From Octopus vulgaris (taxonomy: Eukaryota), in assembly GCA_951406725.2 (NCBI GenBank), contig OX597824.1:91016001-91080000 (forward strand): 64,000 nt of DNA. Direction: 5' to 3'. The translations under genes and the position numbers were made by a program. Below, piece by piece: positions 937-57,484 of this stretch. The notes beneath the pieces were generated by a model. It did no database searches and had not been told where the DNA came from. It saw only the letters and a list, made by a program, of their open reading frames with translations. The first letter of the stretch is position 1. Each line of letters starts with the position of its first letter.

Positions 937-22906
<21,970 letters not shown>

Positions 22907-32086: not shown

Positions 32087-32164
<78 letters not shown>

Positions 32165-32176
32165 GCAGCACGAAGT

Positions 32177-32227
32177 TTTGTCAGTGAACAGGTCGCGGTC
32201 TCAAAACGACGAAAATATTTTGACAAA
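32177..32227 (+). ncRNA. minimal hammerhead-like motif, G3:C8 core variant (family C)
   Basis: TTTGTCA-GTGAACA-G-GTCG(..)CGAC-GAA-AATATT-T-TGACAAA. Confidence 0.6.
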
Positions 32228-32365
32228 CTAAATTTAAATGTTGAAGTGAATCTAACGGTTTTTGTGTGTTTCTTAAATGGCTTAGAAACACCTTCCACGC
32301 TGCAGTTGTATTCATTCCAGCACACGATCTCAGATCAAGTCACTTGCTATGCAAGTACATCTCCG

Positions 32366-32423
<58 letters not shown>

Positions 32424-32514: not shown

Positions 32515-32640
32515 TAAGGGTGGGTGTTACTGTAGCTTGTAGCCCCAGGAGAACATCTCCTCCAGCTGGGCACAGAAAGTGTGCCTAAAGCCAGCTGGAG
32601 GAGATGTTCTCCTGGGGCTACAAGCTACAGTAACACCCTC

Positions 32641-32645
<5 letters not shown>
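32515..32645. repeat. near-perfect inverted repeat, 55-bp arms, 21-bp spacer
   Basis: 32515-32569 vs 32591-32645, 1 mismatch. Confidence 0.92.
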
Positions 32646-36135: not shown

Positions 36136-36207
36136 TCCCAAGTGGTCTAGTGGTTAGGATTCCGCGCTCTCACCGCGGCGGCCGGGGTTCGATTCCCCGC
36201 TTGGGAA
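36136..36207 (+). tRNA. tRNA-Glu(CTC) copy 1
   Basis: 72-nt cloverleaf: acceptor TCCCAAG/CTTGGGA, anticodon stem CCGCG/CGCGG around CT-CTC-AC, T-arm CGGGG-TTCGATT-CCCCG; T-run downstream. Confidence 0.96.
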
Positions 36208-37040
36208 ATAGCTATTTTATCAAATTTTTTCTTACGTTAACTCTTTTAATTTTTTTTTTTTTTTACTTTGACATTATGATAAACGAATTTTCTTATCATC
36301 CTCCCATCAGTTACGGAGTAATTATATGGCTAAAATACTCTGAATAAATACTGTCATCAAAATGGTGGTAGAGATTTCGTTAGCAAGATTTTTCATGTGA
36401 GTCCGTGTTAAAACATTCTGTTGTATATTGTGGGGCGGTGGCCATTATGCTAACAATAAGCACACTTTCCTGATTCTCTTTCATTTCTTGATTCAGTTGG
36501 TTAACCATTTATCCTATAAACCAATCGATTCTTTTGATTAATGATTTGGTCAATCAATCAACGAATCAACGAGATTTATCAAAGTCCTTTTTGTCACACT
36601 TCGCAACTTACATCGATATAATGACCCTCCCGACATACAATGTTTCAACACAGGAGTTCAAATCAAGAATCTTTCAAACAAAATCAAGAACAAAAATTAA
36701 CAATTCATACCTCGAAATTCCAAGCACGACCATCCCCTACCATTTCTCCACCCTTCGTTACATTATCACTTGATGGTATCTTTATCTTTTACTTGTTAAA
36801 GTCATTGGATAGTGGCCATGCTGGAGCACCGCTTTGAAGGGGTTTCTGTCAGATAATATAACAGTTTTTATGTGTTTGAAGGCTGCTACTTATTCTATCA
36901 ATCGCATTTGCCGCAGCGCTATGTTAGGGGGACGTAGGTAAACTAACACACCTTGTCAAAACGTGGGGTGGGAATGGGGAGAGGGGGAAAACACGATCAC
37001 AAAGACACATACATATACTACGGGCTGCCTCACAGTTTCC

Positions 37041-37632
37041 TTATTTCTTTATTGCCCACAAGGAGCTAAACACAGTGAGGACAAACGGATTAGGTCGATT
37101 ACATCGACCCCAGTGCGTAATTGGTACTTAATTTATCGACCCCGAAAGGATGACAGGCAAAGTCGACCTCGGCGGAATTTGAACTCAGAACATAACGGCA
37201 GACTAAATACCTATTTCTATTTCTTTACTACCCACAAGGGGCAAAACACAGAGAGGACAAACAAGGACAGACAAACGGATTAAGTCGATTACATCAACCC
37301 CAATGCGTAACTGGTACTTATTTAATCGACCCCGAAAGGATGAAAGGCAAAGTCGACCTCAGCGGAATTTGAACTCAGAACGTAGCGGCAAACGAAATAC
37401 CTATTTCTTTACTACCCACAAGGGGCTAAACACAGAGGGGACAAACAAGGACAGACAAACGGATTAAGTCGATTATATCGACCCCAATGCGTAACTGGTA
37501 CTTATTTAATCGACCCCGAAAGGATGAAAGGCAAAGTCGACCTCAGCGGAATTTGAACTCATAACGTAGAGGCAGACGAAATACCGCTAAGCATTTCGCC
37601 CGGCGTGCTAACGTTTCTGCCAGCTCGCTGCC
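37041..37632 (-). mobile_element. SINE family 2 (head GGCAGCGAGCTGGCAGAA...GAGTTCAAATTCC), trimer, nested in a family 1 copy
   Basis: One A-box head + three tandem bodies of ~170-190 bp. Confidence 0.8.
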
Positions 37633-38557
37633 ATACAGTTTCCGTCAACGAAATTCACTCACAACGCATTGGTTAGCATGAGGCTATAGTCGTAGACACT
37701 TGCCCAAGCTACCGCTTAGAGAGACTCTACCCGAAACCACGTGCTCTCGAAGCGAACTTCTTAATCTTTAATCTAAGCCTTGCACGCAATTATTCGGATA
37801 ACTGTCCATAGAATCGATTTCCGTTCTGGGAGCTTATTAAGCGGATTGGGCTGCTGATTGGGTGGTTCGAAGTGCTTGTCACTTGCGATGGTGTTACCAA
37901 CATTAGTCATGCAACTGTAGCTAGCTTTGACGTTTTGTCGTTTAAATAATTTTTCTTTTTTTTTTTTTTGTATGATTAAATATATAACAACCTCGCTTGT
38001 TCTGCTGCGCTGGGGAAACAGAATTGATTTGCTTCTTACAAGATACTGCATAAAGACGATTAATGATTACTAAATCCACGAACTTCGTTAATCTTCTGAA
38101 ATATACAATATAAGACTTTAACGCCGATCTTTAGTTATTTCGAAAATATTCAAACTTAAATAATCATAATATACACAATCATGCGACTAGAATTACCGAC
38201 CTTGACTACGAAATTTGAACTCATTATCATTACTATTGTTTTAATACAATTTATTGCGATATCATTATCGTGACCTGACAGAATGGTTAAGACAACGGAC
38301 TAAATGCTTATCGGCATTTCGTCCGCCCTTATGTTTTGAGATCAAATTCCGCCAAAACTTTGCCTTTCATTCTTTCGAGATAAATAAAATAAGTACCAGT
38401 CATGCACTGCGGTCGATGTAATCGATTTAGATCTCCCCTGAAACTGCCGGCTCTTCGTCAAAATTTGAAGCCATTATTATCAGTCTCTGACGTTGGCACA
38501 AATGGTAATCCGCGGAGTAATAATTATTTTGTTCATTATCGATCGAGTTCGAAAGAC

Positions 38558-38982
38558 GGGGTGAGCTGGCAGAAACGTTAGCACGCCGGGCAAAATGCGT
38601 AGCCGTATTTCGTCTGCCACTACGTTCTGAGTTCAAATTCCGAGGTCGACTTTGCTCCGCCGAGGTCGACTTTGCCTTTCATCCTTTCGGGGTCGATAAA
38701 TAAATTAAGTACCAGTTACGCGCTGGGGTCGATGTAATCGACTTAATCCCTTTGTCTGTCCTTGTTTGTCCCCTCAGTGTTTAGCTCCTCGTGGGTAGTA
38801 AAGAAATAGGTATTTCGTCTGTCTTTACGTTCAGGGTTCAAATTCCGCCGAGGTCGACTTTGCCTTTCATCCTTTCGGGGTCGATAAATCAAGTACCAGT
38901 TGCATACTGAGGTCGATCTAATCGAGTGGCCACCCCCGTCCCCCAAAATTTCGGGCCTTTTGTCTAGAGTAGAAAAGATTAT
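38558..38982 (+). mobile_element. SINE family 2 dimer
   Basis: Head + body/tail A + body/tail B. Confidence 0.8.
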
Positions 38983-39860
38983 TGACCGAGTTTAAATCGT
39001 ACCAGCTGTCTTCGGGATTGCGTTTTTATCCCACTGTTGACGTCCTGGAAACATTTATTACGTTGAGGATCAAGGAGCCACCAATTGACCGTGATACATC
39101 GAAACCCAAGTAGTGTAGTGGGCAGAAACAATGACAGCAACAACAGCAGGGCTTTCCCCTTTGTATATTATATCAGAATAATGTTTGCATCCCTTTAGTG
39201 CCATGTCACCTAAGAGCCTTCCAGTTTGTAGAATTATTTTCTCTTTACAAGTCATTATATATTGTTCAATGCAAAGCAGAGGTTCAAAGTTCAATATTCT
39301 GTTGTAATTATAAAAATAATTAACGACAATTAATGCTAGAAACGCCATACTTTATTCCGAATGAGAAATTTGAAATACGTTCGTAACAATTTCGACAAGC
39401 GTTTGGTTGTTGGTCGAAAACTAGATCTGGCTGCGTGTTGAAACGAGATCTTAGTGTCATGTTTACCAAGCAAAGCGTCAGCAGTTTGTACGAACGTTCA
39501 CGAGCAAAAACACTTTCACTGTAGCTGAACATGTCCCACTTAGTCTACAAAACGTCAAAGCTAGCTACAATTGCATGACTATTGTTGCTTATCGTTTCTA
39601 TTTCATTTCCGTGCACGTTTATTTTTGTACATGTGAAGGCTCGTGGCTTAGTGGTAAGGAAATTCGGCTCACACTCGTAAGGCCGTGAGTTCGATTCCCG
39701 GCGGTGTGTTGTGTCCGTGTGCAAGTCACTTTATTTCACGTTGTGCCAGTTCACTTGGTTGGCAAAAATGAGGAGTACCAGCATTTCAAAGGACCACCCT
39801 TGTCACATTGTGTGTCATGTTCCTTCTTCCTCTACGACTATATTAAAAGTACGCGTGTCT

Positions 39861-39974
39861 GGCCGTATCACGTTGAAAGCACCGGTTCTCGTCCGATCAC
39901 CGAAGTTAAGCAACGTCGAGCCTAGTTAGTACTTAGATGGGTGTCCGCTTGGGAAACCAAGGAGCTGTAAGCGT
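39861..39974 (+). rRNA. 5S rRNA copy, 5'-clipped by ~6 nt, probably a pseudogene/retrocopy
   Basis: GGCCGTATCACGTTGAAAGCACCGGTTCTCGTCCGATCACCGAAGTTAAGCAACGTCGAGCCTAGTTAGTACTT...GCTGTAAGC matches invertebrate 5S. It lacks the 5' strand of helix I and an oligo-T terminator, and has substitutions in the internal promoter region. Confidence 0.88.
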
Positions 39975-39983
39975 CTCACACTT

Positions 39984-40155
39984 GGGCGCAGGAGTGGCTG
40001 TGTGGTAAGTAGCTTGCTTACCAACTACATGGTTCCGGGTTCAGTCCCACTGCGTGGCACCTTGGGTAAGTGTCTTCTACTATAGCCTCGGGCCAACCAA
40101 AGCCTTGTGAGTGGATTTGGTAGACGGAAACCGAAAGAAGCCCGTCATGTATATG

Positions 40156-40237
<82 letters not shown>

Positions 40238-40427
40238 TCCCCCTAATATCGCTTGACAACCGATGCTGGTGTGTTTACGTCCCCGTAACTTAGCGGTTCG
40301 GCAAAATAGACCAATAGAATAAGTACTAGGCTTACAAAGAATTTGTGATTGGTCGATTTGCTCGACTAAAGGCGGTGCTCCAGCATAGCCGCAGTCAAAT
40401 GACTGAAACAAGTAAAAGAGTAAAAGA
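39984..40427 (+). mobile_element. SINE family 1, full length, directly 3' of the 5S copy
   Basis: Homology to 22238-22646. Confidence 0.85.
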
Positions 40428-40829
40428 GGAGTGCTCAGCCACTTAGAGGTTAACTTCACAAGCAGGCTGTTGCGTTAACTGGATTATCTTGAACACTCAT
40501 CGTCGTAACCGACGGAGTAGCGGTTGAATTATATTTATACGTAGGGTTCCTGCAAATACTGTGTTTCAACGTAACTCTTGTTTTTTCTTAATCGCGTTTA
40601 ACCATGGCTACCACTGTCGGTCTCTACTTGGGAGTTGCGTAGAAAGCCAGATAACTGAAACTGGAGTTTGACTTTTCTTGCTTCCATGTGGGCGCAACAA
40701 AATATAGAATATGGCAATCTTTCGGAATACGTCTTAGAATTATCATTATCTTCGTCATTTAACGGCAACTGGATTAGAAACTTTACTTTATCCCTTCCAA
40801 ATATCCTTTTCATAAATCTATTATAGAAT

Positions 40830-41229
40830 ATTCTTTTCTGTTCTAGGTACAAGGATCGAAATTTGGCGGGAGGGGGGGCCAGTCGATTATATCGACCCCA
40901 GAGCATAACTGGTACTTAATTTATCGAAAGGTACGAAAGGATGAAAGGCAGAGTCGACCTCGGTGGAATTTGAACTCAGAACGTAATGACAGACGAAATA
41001 CCCATTTCTTTACTACCCACAAGAGGCTAAACATAGAGTGGACAAACAAGGACAGACAAACAGATTAAGTCGATTATATCGACTTATTTAATCGTACTTA
41101 TTTAATCGACCCTGAAAGGATGAAAGGCAAAGTCGACCTCGGCGGAATTTGAACTCAGAACGTAAAGACTGACGAAATACCGCTAAGCATTTCGCCCGGC
41201 GTACTAACCTTTCTGCCAGCTCGTCGCCT
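40830..41229 (-). mobile_element. SINE family 2 dimer
   Basis: Same architecture as 38558-38982; monomers at 1-195 (-), 6760-6980 (+), 47800-48013 (-). Confidence 0.8.
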
Positions 41230-41518
41230 TTCTTTTACAGAATATTGAACTTCAACTGGATTCAAAGTTTCACTGTTCTCTTTCCATTTAACTGTGAACA
41301 ATTTCTACCCAGACTACAAAAAAGTGGATTCTTCGTCTATATTGGAGGTATAGAAGAATGAAAAATGTCATGTACTCTATTTTCTTGTACTTTATCAAGT
41401 CTACCTTGGCTGAAGATGAAGTAACTTACCTTGCTTAACGTCAGCTTACAAACACAACGATTTACAAGCAGTTACAAATACTTCGGTATATAGTTATTTT
41501 TCGGTCTCGGTGTCAGCT

Positions 41519-41590
41519 TCCCAAGTGGTCTAGTGGTTAGGATTCCGCGCTCTCACCGCGGCGGCCGGGGTTCGATTCCCCGCTTGGGAA
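41519..41590 (+). tRNA. tRNA-Glu(CTC) copy 2
   Basis: Identical to copy 1; TTTT downstream. Confidence 0.96.
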
Positions 41591-41786
41591 CAATCTATTT
41601 TAACTTTTTCCCTTACATCCAGTATTCCGTTGATTTTCTTAAAAGTTTAAACCACGGGTTCTCAACCATTTTTTTCTTCTTCTATGGACCCATTTCATTA
41701 ATATTTTTATTCCGGTGGACTCCCCCCCCCCCCCCAAGCCATTCGATTTATAAAAATACTAATTTTATAGAGATGCAGCACGAATC

Positions 41787-41837
41787 TTTTTCAGTGAACA
41801 GGTCGCGGTCTCAAAGCGACGAAAATATTTTGGCAAA
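41787..41837 (+). ncRNA. minimal hammerhead-like motif, G3:C8 variant, second copy (family C)
   Basis: Same core; stem II GTCGC/GCGAC; helix I partly decayed. Confidence 0.5.
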
Positions 41838-42355
41838 TTATATTTAAAAGTTGAAGTGAATCTAACGGTTTTTTTGTGTGTTTCTTAAATGGCTTATAAA
41901 CACCTTCCACGCTGCAATTGTTTTCGTTCCAGCACAACGATCTCAGATCAGGTCACTTGCTATGCAAGTACATCTCCGAAATTTAACAGAAACTTCTTTT
42001 GAAGTCTGTAAAACGTCAGAGAATGAAATCCCAATGTTTATTGCAATACAGAGCAATACATACGTTCAAAGCAAAACTTATTCAGGCGCCCTCAAAATAC
42101 TAGTGTGGGTTCCCAATTTACTATTCTGTTGCGTGGACCCACAAAAATCATAAAGACCCCAGTTGAGAACCATTGGTTTAAACTGTTTCTCTCATTTAGC
42201 CATTAGCGAAGCAGCAACAGTTTAAATAACAGACTCGATTAATGCGCAGCTGTTACCATCAGGAGTATTATTACATATAAGAATATAATTAGTATATCTT
42301 AATTAATTTCGCTTACATTACCAGGTGATGGTATATGTATATATATATATATATG

Positions 42356-42673
42356 TAGAAAATAGTAAAAAGTGAAAAAACTACAGAAGGCTTGTTTTAA
42401 AAGGTTAAAAAATATATATTTAAGTCAATATGTCTGAAGAATATTATAAATTTATTTAGAACTCTTTTCAACATAAACATAACGATAACTCTTCTCAACA
42501 TAAACATAACGACGTAAGAAATTTGAAAAGCTAAACGCGAAACCGGTCTTTCTTCTAAACTATGTCATTGTAAGAAAAAAAATTATATTCTTCAGACATA
42601 TTGACTCAAATATATATTTTTTAACCTTTTAAAACAAGCCTTCTGTAGTTTTTTCACTTTTTACTATTTTCTA
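42356..42673. repeat. AT-rich foldback element, ~89-bp arms, between (TA)n tracts
   Basis: 42356-42444 vs 42585-42673. Confidence 0.85.
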
Positions 42674-42707
42674 TATATTCAACCACGTACTTTCACAAAC
42701 CAACTTT

Positions 42708-42807
<100 letters not shown>

Positions 42808-43519
42808 CATATATATATATGCATAATAATATATAAATATATGCATATATATATATACATATATGTACATACCTACATATATATGTATATATACATGCAT
42901 ATATGGGTACAGGACAACAAAAAAGACGTTGAACAGAATGAAAAACGAAAAAATAAAAACAAAAACATAGAAAACGAACTTTTTTCGAACAACGAAAAGC
43001 ACAAAGGGAGAAATGAAACATGCGACATAAAGAATATTCCCCTTCTTCAGTTGTCCCTGTTTCATCTACTCCGAGGTTACGAAGGCAAGGACAATATGCG
43101 ACTTCGTTGAAACAATCCTTTCCGCAAAGCAAATTAAATAAAATTTGGGATTTTTTGCGGAGTGTGAAAGTGGTAACAAGAACAGGACAGTGAGAACAAA
43201 CGGTGAGTGCTGTTAATTACCAAATGGCAAGATCAGCTTCGCTTGAGCAGGGGGAGATAATCACAAGATTCAAGAATTCTGGAAGTTAACAAGCTGTTAC
43301 GAAAAAGAACAGGTTCGTTATCTGGAAATAAGACAATCGGGGAGACGTATTTCTGGCTCAATAAGCGTCATTAGCACGACATTTATTCAACCCTATTTCC
43401 TGTTGCCAAACTTCTACAAAAAAAAGAACACATTTAAGTAAAAATAACTAAGAGTGTCCAGTGGAATGTATTTGAGCAACATAGACGAATATTTTGAACA
43501 ATAACTATATTAGAATCTT

Positions 43520-43895
43520 TACTCTACTCTTTTACTCTTTTACTCTTTTACTTGTTTCAGTCATTTGACTGCGGCCATGCTGGAGCACCACCTTTTAGTA
43601 CTTATTCTATCGGTCTCTTTTTGCCGAACCGCTAAGTGACGGGGACGTAAACACACCAGCATCGGTTGTCAAGCAATGCTAGGGGGACAAACACAGGCAC
43701 ACAAACACACACACATATACATATATATACATATATACGACAGGCTTCTTTCAGTTTCCGTCTACCAAATCCACTCACAAGGCATTGGTCGGCCCGGGGC
43801 TATAGCAGAAGACACTTGCCCAAGATGCCACGCAGTGGGACTGAACCCGCAACCGTGTGGTTGGTTAGCAAGCTACTTACCACACAGCCACTCCT
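43520..43895 (-). mobile_element. SINE family 1 with internal deletion
   Basis: Homology to 22238-22646. Confidence 0.8.
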
Positions 43896-44232
43896 ACGTT
43901 GAAGTTTATTAAAGATGATGGGGGGAAAAATACCCTTTCATAAATCTATCGCGGAATACTAAACTTCAACTGGATTCAAAGTGTCTCTGTCCACTTTCCA
44001 TTCAACTGTAAATAATTATATCTACTCTACCCACAAAGAAGCGGACCCTTCTTCCGGATTAGAAAGAAAAAAAATGATGTCATGTACTTTATTTTGCATG
44101 TACTTTATCACGTCAATCTCGACTGAACATGAAGTTACCTACTTTACTTAACGCCAACAGACAACCACAACTCTTTACAAGCACTTACAAATGTTTCTGT
44201 ATATATGAAATTTTCAGCGTTAGTCGACAGCT

Positions 44233-44304
44233 TCCCAAGTGGTCTAGTGGTTAGGATTCCGCGCTCTCACCGCGGCGGCCGGGGTTCGATTCCCCGCTTG
44301 GGAA
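44233..44304 (+). tRNA. tRNA-Glu(CTC) copy 3
   Basis: Identical to copy 1. Confidence 0.96.
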
Positions 44305-45521
44305 AAGCATCTTCTTTTGTGAGTGTGTGTGTTCTTTTCTTTTTCCTTTTGGGTGTATGATAATAACTGGTTTCTATATTTCGTTTTTGTATTCGATTTG
44401 CAAGATTCTTTATGTGAATTCGTATGTTGAAGCATATTTTATTGTGTTTGGGGAGAGCCATTCCCTATTAGTGCCTTACTAATTTAACACACTCACCACT
44501 CTGAGTTCCACTTATTTACTTATTTATTTATTTTTACTAAAACTAATGAATAAGTAAATGAATGGTTTCTTTATTTTCGCCTGAATTATGCGATAATCGT
44601 TCACTTTAAGCAAACTAAATTGATAGTGAAATGTACAAGGATTGCTCTCAAAATAGGGGAAAAAGATTTCGGATGTAAAAACGTAGTTGGGATTTCTAAA
44701 TATCATAATTGTTTTCTTGAAATTATATATTACCGTCGTATTACGAGTTGATGGTATAAACGTTATTATTCGAATAGATATTCATGAAATTCTGATGTGT
44801 CTGGGGAGAGTCATTCTCCGGTGAGTGTGTTAAATAATAAGGCACTAAATGAGAATGGCTCTCCCCAGACACAACAGAATATGCTTCAACACACGAACTC
44901 ATATAAAGAATCTTGCAAACCAAATCCAAAAACGAAATTTTAATGAAATTGGTTTCCAGTATTGGCTTTATGAAGTTATCAACGTGTCAGCTGCTACCTG
45001 TGACGATGGTCCTCGCATCAGTCATACAAGTGAAGCTATCTTTTACGTTTTGTCGGTTAAATAGCGTATATATGATTGAATATAATATTTTTGTATCATT
45101 CACGTATTCTGTCGTGCTTCCCCTCGCCTTTCAACATTACATGAAAGAAAACGATTCACTAAATTCTTTCTTTCAGTAAAAATAATTATTTATGGTTTAT
45201 TATAAATCATAGGATCAAAATTTAATATTATGTGTTATAGTTATAGAAAAGATTAACAATATTCACTGTCCGCTTTCCATTCAACTGTAAATAATTATTT
45301 CTACTCTCCCTACAAAGAAATGGACTCTTCTTCCAGACAGGAGCGAGGCAGTAAAAGATTGAAAAATGACGTCATGTACTTCCCTTTGTTTGTACTTTAT
45401 CATGGCTATGTCGACTGCAGATGAAATAATGCACCATACTTATCAACAAAACAAACACAATGATTGGCAAGAACTTACAAATACTTCAGTATATAGATAT
45501 TTTTCAGTGTCTTTACCATCT

Positions 45522-45593
45522 TCCCAAGTGGTCTAGTGGTTAGGATTCCGCGCTCTCACCGCGGCGGCCGGGGTTCGATTCCCCGCTTGGGAA
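45522..45593 (+). tRNA. tRNA-Glu(CTC) copy 4
   Basis: Identical to copy 1. Confidence 0.96.
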
Positions 45594-46816
45594 AAGCTTC
45601 TTCTTTTGTATGTGTGTGTATTTTTTTTTTTCCTTTTGGGTGTATGATAATAACTGGTTCCTTTATTTCGTTTTTGTATTCGATTTGCAAGATTCCTTAT
45701 GTAAATTTGTGTGTTGAAGCATATTTTATTGTGTCTGGGAAGGGTCATTCACTTTTAGTGCCTTACTAATTTAACACACTCACCAGTCTGAGTTCCACTC
45801 ATTCATTTATTTATTTATTTATTTATTTTTACTAAAACTAATAATTAAGTAAATGAATGGTTTCTTTATTTTCGCCTGAATTATGCGATAATCGTTCACT
45901 TTAAGCAAACTAAATTGATAGTGAAATGTACAAGGATTGCTCTCAAAATAGGGAAAAAGATTTCTGATGTAAAAACGTAGTTGGGATTTCTAAATATCAT
46001 AATTGTTTTCTTGAAATTATATATTATCGTCGTATTACGAGTTGATGGTATAAACGTTATTATTCGAATAGATATTCATGAAATTCTGATGTGTCTGGGG
46101 AGAGTCATTCTCCGGTGAGTGTGTGTTAAATAATAAGGCACTAAATGAGAATGGCTCTCCCCAGACACAACAGAATATGCTTCAACACACGAACTCATAT
46201 AAAGAATCTTGCAAACCAAATCCAAAAACGAAAAATTAATGAAATTGGTTTCCAGTATTGGCTTTATGAAGTTATCGACGTGTCAGCTGCTACCTGTGAC
46301 GATGGTCCTCGCATCAGTCATACAAGTGAAACTATCTTTTACGTTTTGTCGGTTAAATAGCGTATATATGATTGAATATAATATTTTGTATCATTCACGT
46401 ATTCTGTCGTGTTTCCCTTCGCCTTTCAACATTACATGAAAGAAAACGATTCACTAAATTCTTTCTTTAAGTAAAAATAATTATTTATGGTTTATTATAA
46501 ATCATAGGATCAAAATTTAATATTATATATTATAGTTATAGAAAAGATTAACAATATTCACTGTCCGCTTTCCATTCAACTGTAAATAATTATTTCTACT
46601 CTCCCTACATAGAAATGGACTCTTCTTCCAGACAGGAGGGAGGCAGTAAAAGATTGAAAAATGACGTCATGTACTTCCCTTTGCTTGTACTTTATCATGG
46701 CTATGTCGACTGCAGATGAAATAATGCACCAAACTTATCAACAAAACAAACACAATGAGTGGTAAGAACTTACAAATACTTCAATATATAGATATTTTTC
46801 AGTGTCTTTACCATCT

Positions 46817-46888
46817 TCCCAAGTGGTCTAGTGGTTAGGATTCCGCGCTCTCACCGCGGCGGCCGGGGATCGATTCCCCGCTTGGGAA
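46817..46888 (+). tRNA. tRNA-Glu(CTC) copy 5, T54A variant (possible pseudogene)
   Basis: As copy 1 except GGATCGA instead of GGTTCGA (A at 46869). Confidence 0.85.
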
Positions 46889-47214
46889 ACACTTTCTTTT
46901 TATTACACTTGTGAGATAATAACTGATTTTTTTTTCTTTTGTTCTCGCGACGGTAGTTTATGGTTATCTCACACCCCATTAAAAAATTGGGTTTATGAAA
47001 AATATCGGTGCCTTTGGTAATCTCCCTCAACTAAAAAATATTGTTTAACTCTCAATAAAACAAAGAAAAAAAATGAAAGAATTGAGGACGCCAAACATCA
47101 ACAATGTGTTGAAGTATTGAATCAAAAGGACCCAACCCTTTTAATCCCATCTCTTGTCGTCACATAAACTCAGGACATAACCCAATTTTTAATGGCAACT
47201 TTTTAATGGGGTGA

Positions 47215-47416
47215 GGTGGTAAGTAGCTTGTTCACCAACCACATGGTTCCGGGTTCAGTCCCACTGCGTGGCACTTTGGGCAAGTGTCTTCTACTATAGC
47301 CTCGGGCCGACCAAAGCCTTGTGAGTGGATTTGGTAGACAGAAACTGAAAGAAGTCCGTCGTATATATATGTGTGTATATATATATATATATACATGTGT
47401 GTGTGTGTGTGTGTGT

Positions 47417-47452
<36 letters not shown>

Positions 47453-47780
47453 CTGTGTGTCTGTGTGTATGTGTGTGTGTGTATGTGTTTGTGTATCAGT
47501 GTTTGTCCCCCCCAACATCGCTTAACAACCGATGCTGGTATGTTTACGTCCATGTAACTCAGCGGTTCGGCAAAAGAGACCGATAGAAACACAGACACAC
47601 AAACACATACACACACATATACGACGGGCTTCTTTCAGTTTCCATCTACCAAATCCACTGACAAGGCTTTGGTCGGCCCAAGGCTATAGTAGAAGACACT
47701 TGCCCAAGGTGCCACGCAGTGGGACTGAACCCGCAACCATGTGGTTCGTAAGCAACCTACTTACCACACAGCCACTCCTG
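47215..47780. mobile_element. two SINE family 1 copies fused tail-to-tail (+ 47215-47587, - 47590-47780)
   Basis: Homology to 22238-22646 in both orientations. Confidence 0.75.
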
Positions 47781-48305
47781 CTGTCAGAGGACCTCACGAT
47801 TCTTTTCTACTCTAGGCACAAGGCTCGAAATTTTGGGGGAGGTGGCCAGTCGATTAGATCGACCCAGTACGCAACTGGTACTTAATTTATCAACCCAGAA
47901 AGGGATGAAAGGTAAAGTAGACCTGGGCGGAATTTGAACTCAGAACGTAAAGACAGACGAAATACCGCTAAGTATTTCGCCCCGGCGAGATAACGATTCT
48001 GCCAGCTCGTAGCCATTGTTTCAAATTTTGGTGCAAATCTAATATTTTTTAGAGGAATTGGTAAGTCGATTATATCGACCTAGTAACGAATTTGTACATT
48101 CAGTACTCAGTTGGTACTTGTTTTATCGCCCCCGAAAGGTGAAAGTAATGTAAGCTTCGGTGGAATTTGAACTCACAACGTAAAGAGCCAGATAAGTTTG
48201 CTAATTCCCTACCTTTGTAACTTATTCAATAGATTAACCTAATTAGTCACGGGAAGAAAAAGTACTTCCTCATTTATATTTATTTTACAGTTGTTACCGT
48301 CAGCT

Positions 48306-48377
48306 TCCCAAGTAGTCTAGTGGTTAGGATTCCGCGCTCTCACCGCGGCGGCCGGGGTTCGATTCCCCGCTTGGGAA
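48306..48377 (+). tRNA. tRNA-Glu(CTC) copy 6, G9A variant
   Basis: As copy 1 except A at 48314; the A-box still fits TRG. Confidence 0.92.
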
Positions 48378-48384
48378 ATTGCTC

Positions 48385-48583
48385 TTTTATTCTTTTATTT
48401 GTTTCAGTCATTTAACTGCAGCCATGCTGGAATACCGCCTGTAGTTGAGCAAATCAACCCCAGTACTTATTCTATCGGTTTCTTTTGCCGAACCACTAAG
48501 TTACAGGACGTAGACTCTCCATGATCGGTTGTCAAGAGATGTCGTGGGACACAAACATACATACACACACACACACACACATA

Positions 48584-48644
<61 letters not shown>

Positions 48645-48647
48645 ATA

Positions 48648-48724
<77 letters not shown>

Positions 48725-48864
48725 GCTTCTTTCAGTTTCCGTCTACCAAGTCTTTGGTTGGCCCGAGGCTATAGTAGAAGACACTTGTCCAAGGTGCCAC
48801 GCAGTGGGACTGAACACGGAACCATGTGGTTCATAAGCAAGCTACATACTACACAGCCACTCCT
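48385..48864 (-). mobile_element. SINE family 1 immediately 3' of tRNA copy 6
   Basis: Homology to 22238-22646. Confidence 0.8.
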
Positions 48865-49119
48865 TGTTAATTCTTTATTTAGTTTGACGATAACCGATTT
48901 TTATAATTCTCGGATCGGTTATCTGTTAGTTGTTCACTCTAAGTGCTCAGTTTAATCAGATATTGTTATCGAAATGTTGTAAAAGGTTATTGCCTGTAAT
49001 TAGATAATCAACATACTTGATGGTAAACGCGATGCTCCAGCATGGCCGCAGTCAAATGACTGAAAGAAATAAAAGAATAGTTGTTCGTCTCTCAAGTGGT
49101 TCTTTCCTACCCGGGAAAT

Positions 49120-49340
49120 ACTCTTTTACTCTTTTACTTGTTTCAGTTATTTTGACTGCGGCCATGCTGGAACACCGCCTTTAATCGAGCAACTCGACCC
49201 CGGGACTTATTCTTTTGTAAGCCCAGTACTTATTCTATCGGTCTCTTTTGCCGAACCGCTAAGTAACGGGGACATAAACACACCAGCATCGGTTGTCAAG
49301 CAATGCTAGGGGGACAAACACGGACATACAAACACACACA

Positions 49341-49381
<41 letters not shown>

Positions 49382-49535
49382 GACGGGCTTCTTTTCAGTT
49401 TCCGTCTACCAAATCCACTCACAAGGCTTTGGTCGGCCCGAGGCTATAGTAGAAGACACTTGCCCAAGGTTCCACGCAGTGGGACTGAACCCGGAACCAT
49501 GTGGTTGGTAAACAAGCTACTTACCACAGAGCCAC
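49120..49535 (-). mobile_element. SINE family 1
   Basis: Homology to 22238-22646. Confidence 0.85.
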
Positions 49536-49858
49536 TAACGTATCTATTCTGTCTTGTTACGCTCTGGCAGATTCGAACTCGAACATGCTGATTGCTGCTG
49601 TATTTAGTCTTCGGAGAACATCTCCTTTTTTTGTCGATGTGTGTTCACAACACATCCGATTCGTTGATGTAAAGAGACTTTGAGGTACTGCCGTGTTTCA
49701 ACCTCATTGAGTGTCTCGTCAGGTAATGTTGTTCCGGATCACCGTATCTGTACGAGATTAACGGCTCTTGTTTATAGAACATCAGTCAACAGTATATTTG
49801 CTGAAGCGATAACAATTCATTAGAAGCGCGTAAAACATCGGGAATCCAAACAATAACG

Positions 49859-49952
<94 letters not shown>

Positions 49953-50364
49953 CAACAACAACAACAACAGCAACATCGAAAAATACCTTAGGAATGAGAA
50001 CCCAGGTTCGAAATTTCCCCGAGGCACTTGCTGAAGGCTGGAGGGTATATCAGCCGAAATGTTGTGTTAACAACAAACAAGATGAGGACATTACGGAGAT
50101 GTACTTGCTTAGCAAGTGATTTGATCTGAGATCGTGTGCTGAAACGAAAACAGTTGCAGCGTGGAAGGTGTTTGTAAGCCCTTTAAGAAACACACAAAAG
50201 CCGTTCTTAAATGGCTTACAAACACCTTCCAAGATGAGGACAAATATCCACCAAATGTAAATAAAGTACATAATTCCTCATCTCTTAAATATAGAACAGA
50301 ATAACGTATCTATTTGTTGGTTTCATTGATCAGGTTGCAACTTCCAAAGAAGAGATGTACTTTG

Positions 50365-50525
50365 GGCAAGTAGCTTGCTTACCAATCACATAGTGCGGGT
50401 TCAATCCCACTGCGTGGCACCTTGGGCAAGTGTCTTCTACTATAGCCTCGGGCCGACCAAAGCCTTGTCAGTGGATTTGGTAGATGGAAACGGAAAGAAG
50501 CCCGTCGTATATATATATATATATA

Positions 50526-50581
<56 letters not shown>

Positions 50582-50775
50582 CGTTTGTTCCCCTCCATCG
50601 CTTGACAACCGATGCTGGTGTGTTTATGTCCTCGAAATCTAGCGGTTCGGCAAAAAGACCCCGATAGAATAAGTACTTGGCTTACAAAGAATAAGTCCTG
50701 GGGTCGATTCGTTCGACTAAAAGGCGGTGCTCCAGCATGGCTGCAGCCAAATGACTGAAACAAGTAAAAGAATAA
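50365..50775 (+). mobile_element. SINE family 1
   Basis: Homology to 22238-22646. Confidence 0.8.
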
Positions 50776-51230
50776 AACAAATCTCAAACTGTCACTACTT
50801 CACCTTTAACCGAAAATGAATAATTCTTCCATATTTTGGAAAAAAAACCCCCTAAACTTAGAAACCTACGAAATATTTCTATTCGAAGACAGAAGACAGC
50901 AGAAGCCAAAATAAGGAATATATACGCAGTTAAATATAGAAGTGTAAAATATAATTTGTTACATAATCTCTATAATAAAACATGATACTGAATGCAATAA
51001 TTCTCCGTTTGAACTTTACTAATTACATATATGTGTATGTGTGTGTGTGTGTGTGTGTGGTAGAAATCTACGGATGCACAAACGAACAAAACGGAAAAAA
51101 TGAAACAAATTTGGACGACTTATTCAGAAACACCCTCGAGTGGGGAACGGTTCTCAAAAATAACCCCCAATTGTTTTCTCCCGAAATTCCTGTGTCTTCG
51201 GAATCTACATAGTCCGAGGTATATTTGTAG

Positions 51231-51482
51231 GGTACAACTGTTTAAGAAGAGTGGTCCCGGTGCGCGCACTCGCGTACTCTCGCATCCGCGCTAGCTAGTC
51301 GTGACTAGTCGATCCTACAATGACTACCTAGCAAAGTAAATAAAATACAAAATAAATAATTTTTTACACAAAGTAAATAAAACACAAAAACACAAAGTAA
51401 GGATCGACTAGTCACGGCTAGCTAGTGCGGATGCGCGAGTTCGCGAGTGCGCACACCGGGACCACTCTTCTTAAATAGTACC
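51231..51482. mobile_element. Mutator-like MITE with ~85-bp TIRs and 9-bp TSD
   Basis: GGTAC...GTACC ends, long GC-rich inverted arms, TATTTGTAG on both sides (51222-51230, 51483-51491). Confidence 0.85.
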
Positions 51483-51897
51483 TATTTGTAGAGAATTTTA
51501 TTTAAAAATATCTATTTTCTTGAAAGTTGAGAGGAATAGAAGTGAACTCCGGTGAATTTTCCGAAATACTTTTCCCCAAAAATTTTATGTATTCGGAATC
51601 TACATGGTATAACAGAAATTCGTAGAAAATTTCATTAAAAGACATCTATTTTTCTGAAAGTTATGATCATCCAAAGTCGGGAGGGAGGTGCAGAAATCTC
51701 TAGTTACACCCGAAATGTTTCTACTCGAAGGCAGGCAACAGGCAAGAGGGAAAGTAGCGTTATGTAGGTTGTTTTGCTTCTGAGAGGCTGACTCAAAATA
51801 AAATTGCTTTGCTTGACATCAATACACAGGCACGGCTGTTCACAAGACTATTAACACGTTCGACTATATTCTTATTTTGCTGTATCTGTATTCAGCA

Positions 51898-51969
51898 TCC
51901 CAAGTGGTCTAGTGGTTAGGATTCCGCGCTCTCACCGCGGCGGCCGGGGTTCGATTCCCCGCTTGGGAA
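51898..51969 (+). tRNA. tRNA-Glu(CTC) copy 7
   Basis: Identical to copy 1; TTTT downstream. Confidence 0.96.
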
Positions 51970-54881: not shown

Positions 54882-56515
54882 CTGTATATCTATGTATTTG
54901 TGTGTAATTTATGTATATATATATGTATAAATATATGTATACAACAGGTAAGTTCGCGCATTAACATAATCAGTCCAGTGAGCCGAGGAGCGTAAATTAA
55001 TTAAAAATAACCCCGTGGTGAGAGAAAATAATTGTGAACTTAATGATTAATTTTAGCAAAAGTAGATAAGGGAGGCAACTGTAGAATTTTAATTAATAAA
55101 AATGATAAAAATAGAATGTGGGTAACATAATCGGGAATGGGACTCATCTTGATAAAAGAGAGGTAACTTCGGACATATTTCACTCTTATTAGAACTCCTC
55201 AGTAAAGTAGATTCCTTATCTATACTGACGGAGGTCATGGATACTAGTACACACATACAAGCAGTCACACGGGTGTACACACACACGTACACACACACAC
55301 AACTCTTTCATAATATTCTCACCTTCACCTACTCTTTGAAGCAAACATACATCTACACACACACACACACATGCATACACACACACACACACAGAGAAAG
55401 CATGTATACACGCAGACATAAAGCCAATTCTCAGACAGATGAAAAGAAGACTTTGAAGCGATCGTTAGGGAACACACCGAGTCCCTGGAAAGTGGCGGAC
55501 AGTGAAGAAAGGGCTTTGTCTAATAAACAACCGATCGATTGTTTAACCAACACATTAAACAAACGATCGATTAGCTAATTGGTTTAGATATTTAACTATT
55601 TGATCAACAATAAAGAAGTGGAACTGAACCTGTGCGTGTGTTACTATTATTGGCGTAATGATTCCCCTATACCACAATAAATCGCTAAATCCACAAGTTT
55701 CTTTTCTTTTTAGTCTCTCTCTCTATTTATTTCCTCATGTTCCTTCCAGCTGAAGAGCGTTGGCTCGAAATGTAAAAGACTTCCCCACTTTCCTGAACGT
55801 CAAACTAATACACCTGCTTGTTGTTGATTCACATGTCTTCGTCATAATATGTGACCGCGTGTGTATCGTTGGCGATTTTTTTCCCTCCGTCTTCCCTTCT
55901 TTGGATCTTTCCTTTCCCTATGTTTCTGACGAAGAGCTCCGCTCGAAACGTTAAATCCTCCTTCTTTCTTTCCTTTCCTGAGCGTCCAATAACACTATAC
56001 TTGCTCCACGTCCTCGCGTTGTGTTTTCTCTTTGTTCATGTTTGGATTAACTATATATATATCTTTCTTTACTACCCACAAGGGGCTAAACAAGGACAGA
56101 CAGACAAACGGATTAAGTCGATTACATCGACCCCAGTGCGTAGCTGGTACTTAATTTATCGACTCCGAAAGAATGAAAGGCAAAGTCGACCTCTGTGTTT
56201 AGTCCCCTGTGGGCAATAAAGAAATAATAATTATTGTTATTATCATTATTGTTGCCTTTGCACAGCTTCTAACACTGGAGATGTACTACAGTGTCAGCTG
56301 TTCACTACCAGTGAACTAAGGTAACACTTCTTATTTTTCGAACCTCTTCCGGAGTATTCGAGCTGGTATGTTTACGTTCCCGTTAATTAGCTGTTCGGCA
56401 AAAGAGACCGATAAAATACCAGGCTTAGCCAAACAAATGAAAGTTAAGTACTGCGGGGTTCGACATTTGAGATAATAAAATATCTCAAATGTGGCGATTA
56501 AACTGACCAAAATAT
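52212..56515. repeat. inverted duplication, ~490-bp arms (52212-52708 and 56034-56515)
   Basis: Reverse-complement match that includes non-SINE sequence. Confidence 0.88.
55922..55956 (+). ncRNA. minimal hammerhead ribozyme-like motif, intact core
   Basis: GTTT-CTGACGA-A-GAGC(TCC)GCTC-GAA-ACGT-T-AAAT. Confidence 0.65.
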
Positions 56516-57448: not shown

Positions 57449-57484
57449 CTTTCTGATGAAGAGCAAAGGCTCGAAACGTAAAAG
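57449..57484 (+). ncRNA. minimal type-I hammerhead ribozyme-like motif, intact core (family A)
   Basis: CTTT-CTGATGA-A-GAGC(AAAG)GCTC-GAA-ACGT-A-AAAG. Confidence 0.7.

Follow-up and report, generated by a model that had tools for sequence, protein, structure and literature searches.

A hammerhead-shaped motif with a reversed 3:8 core pair in a high-copy 206-nt repeat of probable Penelope-like origin in Octopus vulgaris

Results

Copies of the 206-nt repeat and their setting

The window (the whole 64-kb stretch of DNA analyzed here) is rich in microsatellites and short repeats. An interspersed repeat of 206 nt, here called family C, is present in three copies, all of them solo, and two of these carry a hammerhead-shaped motif near their 5' end. 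The features of the repeat are as follows, with residue numbers given in the standard hammerhead scheme.

32163-32368, plus strand: copy 1 of the repeat, between two (TA)n tracts
32177-32227, plus strand: hammerhead-shaped motif of copy 1, minimal type I, recognized from the sequence and by a descriptor match
32177-32183, plus strand: 5' strand of stem I in copy 1, pairing with 32221-32227 (pair probabilities 0.30-0.95)
32184-32191, plus strand: core G3 U4 G5 A6 A7 C8 A9, followed by an extra G (32191) after A9
32192-32210, plus strand: stem-loop II with closing pair G10.1-C11.1 (G32192-C32210), 4 bp in copy 1
32211-32220, plus strand: G12 A13 A14 (32211-32213), palindrome AAUAUU (32214-32219) and U17 (32220)
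32221-32368, plus strand: the 148 nt behind the predicted cut, i.e., the 3' strand of stem I and the 3' body of the repeat
41773-41981, plus strand: copy 2, 92% identical to copy 1, with its motif at 41787-41837
50091-50231, minus strand: copy 3, 5'-truncated (repeat positions 92-206 at 50091-50205), including a 28-nt inverted piece on the 5' side
50078-50090 (left) and 50230-50242 (right), no strand: perfect 13-bp target-site duplication of copy 3

The 5' and 3' limits of copy 1 agree with those of copy 2 and with the loose ends of contigs from public sequencing runs, and the motif begins 14 nt inside the 5' end so defined. Copy 3 lacks the first 91 nt of the repeat and has no hammerhead motif, while its 3' end is the one common to copies 1-3; an optional 3' extension, starting from about 32310, is a weakly indicated possibility. 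Copy 2 sits inside a MITE-like element (41641-42187) with 26-bp inverted ends (41641-41666 and 42162-42187), and its flanks show a possible decayed 10-bp target duplication, in which 8 of the 10 letters agree.

Several neighboring features were recorded in the same window. Spliced exons of a gene of the EML/EMAP family (HELP motif, beta-propeller domains) occupy 937-17577 on the plus strand, and seven tRNA-Glu(CTC) genes, all on the plus strand with a spacing of 1.3-5.4 kb and mostly different flanks, extend over 36136-51969, with one 5S rRNA copy among them (39855-39973). Directly behind the flank of copy 1 lies a long inverted repeat (32520-32642) with arms of about 55 bp, which is followed by (TA)n. 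Two further repeat families with minimal hammerheads were found at 55922-55956 and 57449-57484, both on the plus strand, each with a canonical C3:G8 pair, the palindrome ACGU and an additional A behind A9; decayed relatives of these canonical families lie at 12250 and 55744 on the plus strand and at 13932 and 26074 on the minus strand. A decayed minimal-hammerhead-like motif also occurs in a fourth repeat family, represented at 11545-11655 and 13327-13393 (both minus strand) and at 49961-50090 (plus strand). One copy of this family is immediately followed by copy 3 of family C, which is inserted in the opposite orientation.

Anatomy of the motif and the reversed core pair

The first-pass annotation had proposed a hammerhead variant at 32177-32227 with the core GUGAACA and the palindrome AAUAUU, and the sequence bears out this layout. 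In copy 1, stem I (32177-83/32221-27) consists of seven Watson-Crick pairs, the strands of stem II are 32192-95/32207-10, and G3, C8 and A9 correspond to positions 32184, 32189 and 32190, respectively. From the hammerhead numbering, the cut is predicted after 32220. The second copy reported at 41787-41837 (plus strand) was likewise found as described, with the same core (G3 at 41794, C8 at 41799) and a 5-bp stem II, which is also the length in the family majority. The proposal that all helices are placed as a minimal hammerhead needs them applies to copy 1, where complementarity allows stems I and II to form a three-way junction around the core. In copy 2, stem I is broken by a U-C mismatch (41790/41834) and includes one U.G wobble.

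Both copies with the motif retain U4, G5, A6, A9, G12, A13, A14, A15.1, U16.1 and H17. Nine of the 11 core bases are canonical in either copy, and only positions 3 and 8 differ and are still complementary: the literal consensus C3 and G8 (CUGANGA) is absent, and G3 and C8 form a Watson-Crick G:C combination in its place. The alternative core register, in which a canonical core would contain an insertion, was rejected because the letters do not fit it. The motif also has features of the minimal hammerheads of Penelope-like elements (PLEs), namely the extra nucleotide after A9, the G10.1-C11.1 pair and a palindromic helix III.

Comparison with simulated sequence and database searches

We searched for the motif with a descriptor, written after the motif had been seen, that comprises N-UGA-N-N-A, an optional extra base, stem II of at least 4 bp with G10.1-C11.1, GAA, a palindromic helix III, H17 and stem I of at least 4 bp. 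In 87,000,174 simulated bases (second-order Markov model, single strand) it matched twice, with a Watson-Crick 3:8 pair in neither match. The real window, searched on both strands, gave three matches, each of which has a Watson-Crick 3:8 pair (G:C in one and C:G in two), and thus the motif is more than chance. The folding energy of the 51-nt motif is unexceptional (z -1.25), and the RNA of the 206-nt repeat is not strongly self-paired (z -0.28).

Rfam returned no hammerhead match for the motif, either at the gathering level or at E<=10. This test is weak for minimal forms, since the canonical minimal hammerheads of the window are likewise without a match at the gathering level. The expectation that a CUGANGA search would overlook the motif was correct, and Rfam overlooks it as well.

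Searches for related sequences covered several collections. Four viral matches to a two-part core pattern in the virus and prokaryote collections have neither stem I nor the palindrome and were discarded. A 17-mer search of metagenomes gave about 130 matches, 120 of which were examined; none of these continues into the motif and the longest alignment is 33 nt, as chance alone would give. The genome_contigs and viral_contigs collections contain no match to a 21-mer taken from the repeat's 3' half, and blastn of the repeat against phages and plasmids found nothing. Translations of the repeat in two frames, used as queries, retrieved no relative, the word-index searches were empty, and an Atlas search with a repeat translation gave no usable match; two repetitive proteins matched by the translations in the representative search are unrelated. 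A homologous family with C3:G8, against which the motif could be aligned, was not found in these searches.

Predicted folding and dimers

In the predicted ensemble of full-length copy 1, the probability of stem II is only 0.12, against 0.82 for a shifted pairing in which G12 is engaged, a misfold that the private A at 32206 favors. The ensemble of copy 2 gives 0.89 for stem II and 0.0 for stem I. With family-majority letters, which were substituted at the visible sites while the first 31 nt are still those of copy 1, both stems are supported (0.97-0.98 for stem II and 0.4-0.63 for stem I). A competing G3.U17 pair is predicted with a probability of 0.42-0.77 (0.42-0.67 with majority letters). 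A trap between residues 3 and 17 is described for C3-G17 in the relevant part of PMC3884650, which also notes lower activity of a G3-C8 variant when residue 17 is C; compared with that trap, the U17 of the present motif would escape its strongest form, but not the G3.U17 wobble.

The predicted double hammerhead (-25.4 kcal/mol) is about as stable as two monomers (2 x -12.4 kcal/mol), and another predicted duplex surpasses it in stability (-30.6 kcal/mol). Based on these folds and dimer energies, the window copies are probably decayed, and the source form too would, on prediction, cut poorly if unaided. Since neither copy is predicted to fold cleanly, cleavage assays of the exact window copies could mislead.

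Copies in public sequencing runs

Public runs under seven organism labels hold at least about half of the sampled words of the repeat (X1-X16; runs X20-X24, with small word shares, were left out). Contigs matching the repeat number 19,913 in X1, 1,304 in X13, 5,857 in X10 and 2,142 in X15 (organism labels A, A, E and G, respectively; contig depth is no copy number, and X13 is only guessed to be RNA). This shows a high-copy family in organism labels A, E and G.

According to the loose ends of the contigs, the 5' limit is near 32163-32176, ahead of AT-rich DNA; in each of the four runs, support among 5' loose ends is best at 32176 and not at a site behind the core. There is also a hint of a second 3' end near 32304-32311, which could reflect either an optional tail or clipping; three differences private to copy 1, at 32305-32314, can clip contig alignments. 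Among the 15 best joints, to which 45 weaker ones come in addition, 10 involve a switch of strand, which in seven cases lies at the 5' end (32163-32176), and none is an abundant head-to-tail joint. One joint in X1, from 32232 to 32176, has a depth of 431 (about 50 for a single contig) and, over three intervening letters, connects the motif's end with its start; if the two sides are on the same strand, this would be a tandem motif pair, the arrangement that a dimer needs.

Variation among copies

The table of differences among copies spans 32194-32338 only, as it is blind for about 31 nt from the ends of the stretch, and positions 3 and 8 fall outside it (the empty variant rows at 32163-32193 were therefore rejected as a sign of G3/C8 conservation). 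Indirect support suggests that G3/C8 may be family-wide. Both window copies with the motif have G3/C8 yet differ at the subfamily sites 32223 and 32338, 11 of the 32 contig pieces listed begin at or before 32181, and the 5' loose ends at 32176 point the same way. Evidence to the contrary comes from two listed pieces that begin at 32193-32195 and from one single-copy contig from X1 that combines G3 with G8, which is either a random change or the trace of an unpaired intermediate.

At position 32206, G accounts for 98-99% of the contig depth and the A is private to copy 1; the majority G yields the 5-bp stem II. Within the paired parts one non-CpG polymorphism was seen, 32223 A>G at 11-28% of depth, and it leaves a U.G pair in place. 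Decay at the motif's CpG sites amounts to 2-14% of depth in the visible range, with 2-3% at G12, hence ordinary copies are not protected. Disrupting non-CpG polymorphism at 5% or more of depth affects 0 of the 25 visible constrained positions and 12 of the 120 free ones (one-sided Fisher p = 0.09); when the wobble at 32223 is counted, the figures are 1 of 25 and 12 of 120 (p = 0.30). Selection on the fold thus gives no significant signal at these visible positions.

Discussion

Meaning of the double change

What speaks most for compensation is that the sole two changed bases are the ones that pair with each other and that they are complementary, as the outcome of a single event. Given two changes, random decay would hit exactly positions 3 and 8 in a complementary manner with a probability of about 1/55 x 1/3 = 1/165, a post hoc figure calculated for 11 core bases. 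The double change had been put forward as covariation evidence for a real ribozyme. It does constitute compensation relative to the class consensus, but it is not covariation within the family, since the two motif copies share one family founder and represent one event and not covariation across lineages. The accompanying statement that compensatory swaps retain activity needs a qualifier: engineered C3G/G8C does rescue cleavage, but only partly (PMC11167929). As described in the sections of PMC11167929 on the PAc element of Anolis and of the review PMC8495972, single mutants are dead and the C3G/G8C double mutant is partly active. The double change is identical to the one reported here, but it was made in the laboratory there, whereas here it is natural and cutting is a prediction.

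Natural compensatory changes at 3:8 are represented in the literature by U3:A8 hammerheads (Perreault et al. 2011, PMC3088659), including those of the Schistosoma Cercyon elements (PMC4209133). Like the motif described here, they are invisible to CUGANGA descriptors. Unlike U3:A8, which arises by two transitions that keep the pyrimidine-purine order, G3:C8 requires two transversions and reverses this order. None of the 56 motifs in Fig. S3 of PMC4209133 has G at position 3 (53 have C3, two have U3:A8 and one has U3.G8). Among the papers listed from the mostly open-access literature compared here, G3:C8 occurs in engineered cases only; other surveys of hammerheads could list such a family. In the cephalopod hammerhead literature we found no description of this repeat family, and the giant-squid paper merely counts Rfam hammerhead matches. 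Short-stem-III hammerhead variants, the subject of Lunse, Weinberg and Breaker 2017, are reportedly small, PLE-associated and active as dimers. The present motif resembles them as a small, presumably PLE-associated hammerhead for which dimer cutting is predicted.

Link to Penelope-like elements and proposed mechanism

The hallmarks of PLE minimal hammerheads given in the text of Cervera and de la Pena 2014 (PMC4209133) are an extra base after A9, G10.1-C11.1, a palindromic helix III and an AU-rich flank, and Fig. S3 of that paper includes 6-nt palindromes in Drosophila Penelope and G after A9 in Nasonia. With the families treated there, the motif shares the type I topology, H17 and every non-core feature, as well as the dispersed solo copies and a presumed dimer activity; it differs from them in the G3:C8 core and in a stem I of 7 bp versus the typical 4-5 bp. 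For PLE insertions, the relevant passages of PMC8557442 and PMC11167929 report that the 3' end is fixed, that tails are optional, that 5' copies can be truncated and inverted and that the targets are AT-rich or microsatellite DNA. The 206-nt repeat displays a fixed 3' end, 5' truncation with inversion and AT-rich or microsatellite targets; the strand-switching joints in the public contigs likewise resemble PLE insertions as described in PMC8557442, and the 13-bp duplication around copy 3 is a further mark of retroposition. Insertion marks of this type are partly common to LINE-type elements. No reverse transcriptase or GIY-YIG domain was detected in the 120 longest of the 192 open frames of the 64-kb window; with neither such a frame nor a parent element found, the Penelope link rests on anatomy.

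We favor, at a probability of roughly 0.6, the reading that the 206-nt repeat is a non-autonomous derivative of a Penelope-like terminal repeat with a weak G3:C8 hammerhead that would depend on dimer formation or on a protein. According to this model, the element would be transcribed, stems I and II would form, and two molecules would pair via AAUAUU to build helix III. In the established hammerhead structure, the 3:8 pair brings G12 and the residue 8 2'-OH into place at the scissile bond; judging from published work, G:C could substitute for C:G in this role at a lower rate, and the competing G3.U17 wobble is predicted to dampen cutting further. Uncut RNA would mostly be copied in trans by a Penelope-type reverse transcriptase/endonuclease, with copying presumably starting at a fixed internal site that appears as the shared 3' end, and insertion into AT-rich target sites would produce whole, truncated and partly inverted copies. 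Once inserted, the copies would decay, G12 included, as observed for the CpG sites, so that selection could act on source copies only. The Anolis PLE offers a precedent in the portions of PMC11167929 that concern it, where the hammerhead needs a protein to cut, uncut RNA is the main template, and hammerhead cleavage is dispensable for insertion in vitro.

A stronger version of this model, which we regard as tentative and rather doubtful, is that the motif is an active natural G3:C8 hammerhead, the first in an animal, selected in the source copies of a Penelope-derived element common to several species. The reversed pair and the G3.U17 trap would then tune cutting down, and uncut RNA would serve as the template.

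Alternative explanations

The alternative that survives best, although we still hold it to be unlikely, is a descendant of a Penelope-type hammerhead that has lost cutting: the founder core would be dead or nearly so, and the fold would be retained only through descent or because the mobilizing protein binds it. The dispensability of cleavage for in vitro insertion of the Anolis PLE (PMC11167929) agrees with this explanation, as do the very high copy numbers attained by PLE clades without canonical hammerheads, according to the part of PMC8557442 that deals with them. It is also in keeping with the predicted G3.U17 trap and weak dimer energy and with a selection signal that is not significant. 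Full-length copies start 57 nt upstream of the predicted cut, which implies that their templates were uncut; however, the Anolis PLE hammerhead, which is active, also uses uncut templates as a rule, as stated in PMC11167929. Moreover, changes confined to the two paired bases, complementary to each other and with the other nine kept, would not be expected of a dead core (about 1/165).

We consider it improbable that the repeat is the monomer of a non-LTR retrozyme, in which tandem 200-nt units would be cut to monomers and circularized. Its length of 206 nt and its GC content are within the range of the animal retrozyme report (170-400 nt; PMC7229834), and solo monomers are known from the corresponding text of bioRxiv 10.64898/2026.07.22.740005. 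The repeat shares with the non-LTR retrozymes of these two sources a short non-coding sequence, a type I hammerhead and probable movement by PLE proteins; it is unlike them in that no tandem arrays were seen, the hammerhead is minimal and self-pairing is weak. All three window copies are solo, the 15 best joints listed include no abundant head-to-tail junction, the start of the unit does not coincide with the cut site, and the z-score of -0.28 is not that of a strongly self-paired RNA, whereas retrozymes carry canonical hammerheads with loop-loop contacts and not the minimal form.

A chance look-alike within an unrelated short repeat is very improbable, because the empty Rfam result, the folding z-scores near zero, the numerous repeat families and a descriptor that postdates the sight of the motif are set against the lack of any match with a Watson-Crick 3:8 pair in the simulated 87 Mb, the 5'-terminal position of the motif within a retroposed unit bearing PLE-like insertion marks, and the canonical minimal hammerheads of the same build in other repeats of the window.

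Implications

The importance of the finding is limited by the fact that the chemistry and the class of host element are already known. If cutting proves true, G3:C8 would, as far as the literature was compared, complete the set of natural 3:8 pairs in animal hammerheads with a purine-pyrimidine reversal previously present in engineered mutants only, and standard descriptors would be undercounting genomic ribozymes. Insertion in vitro does not need cleavage according to the pertinent part of PMC11167929; a compensated double transversion in the source element would argue that cleavage matters in vivo to Penelope-type elements. If the motif is both active and selected, a whole class of high-copy animal ribozymes would have been missed by the CUGANGA and UUGANAA descriptors.
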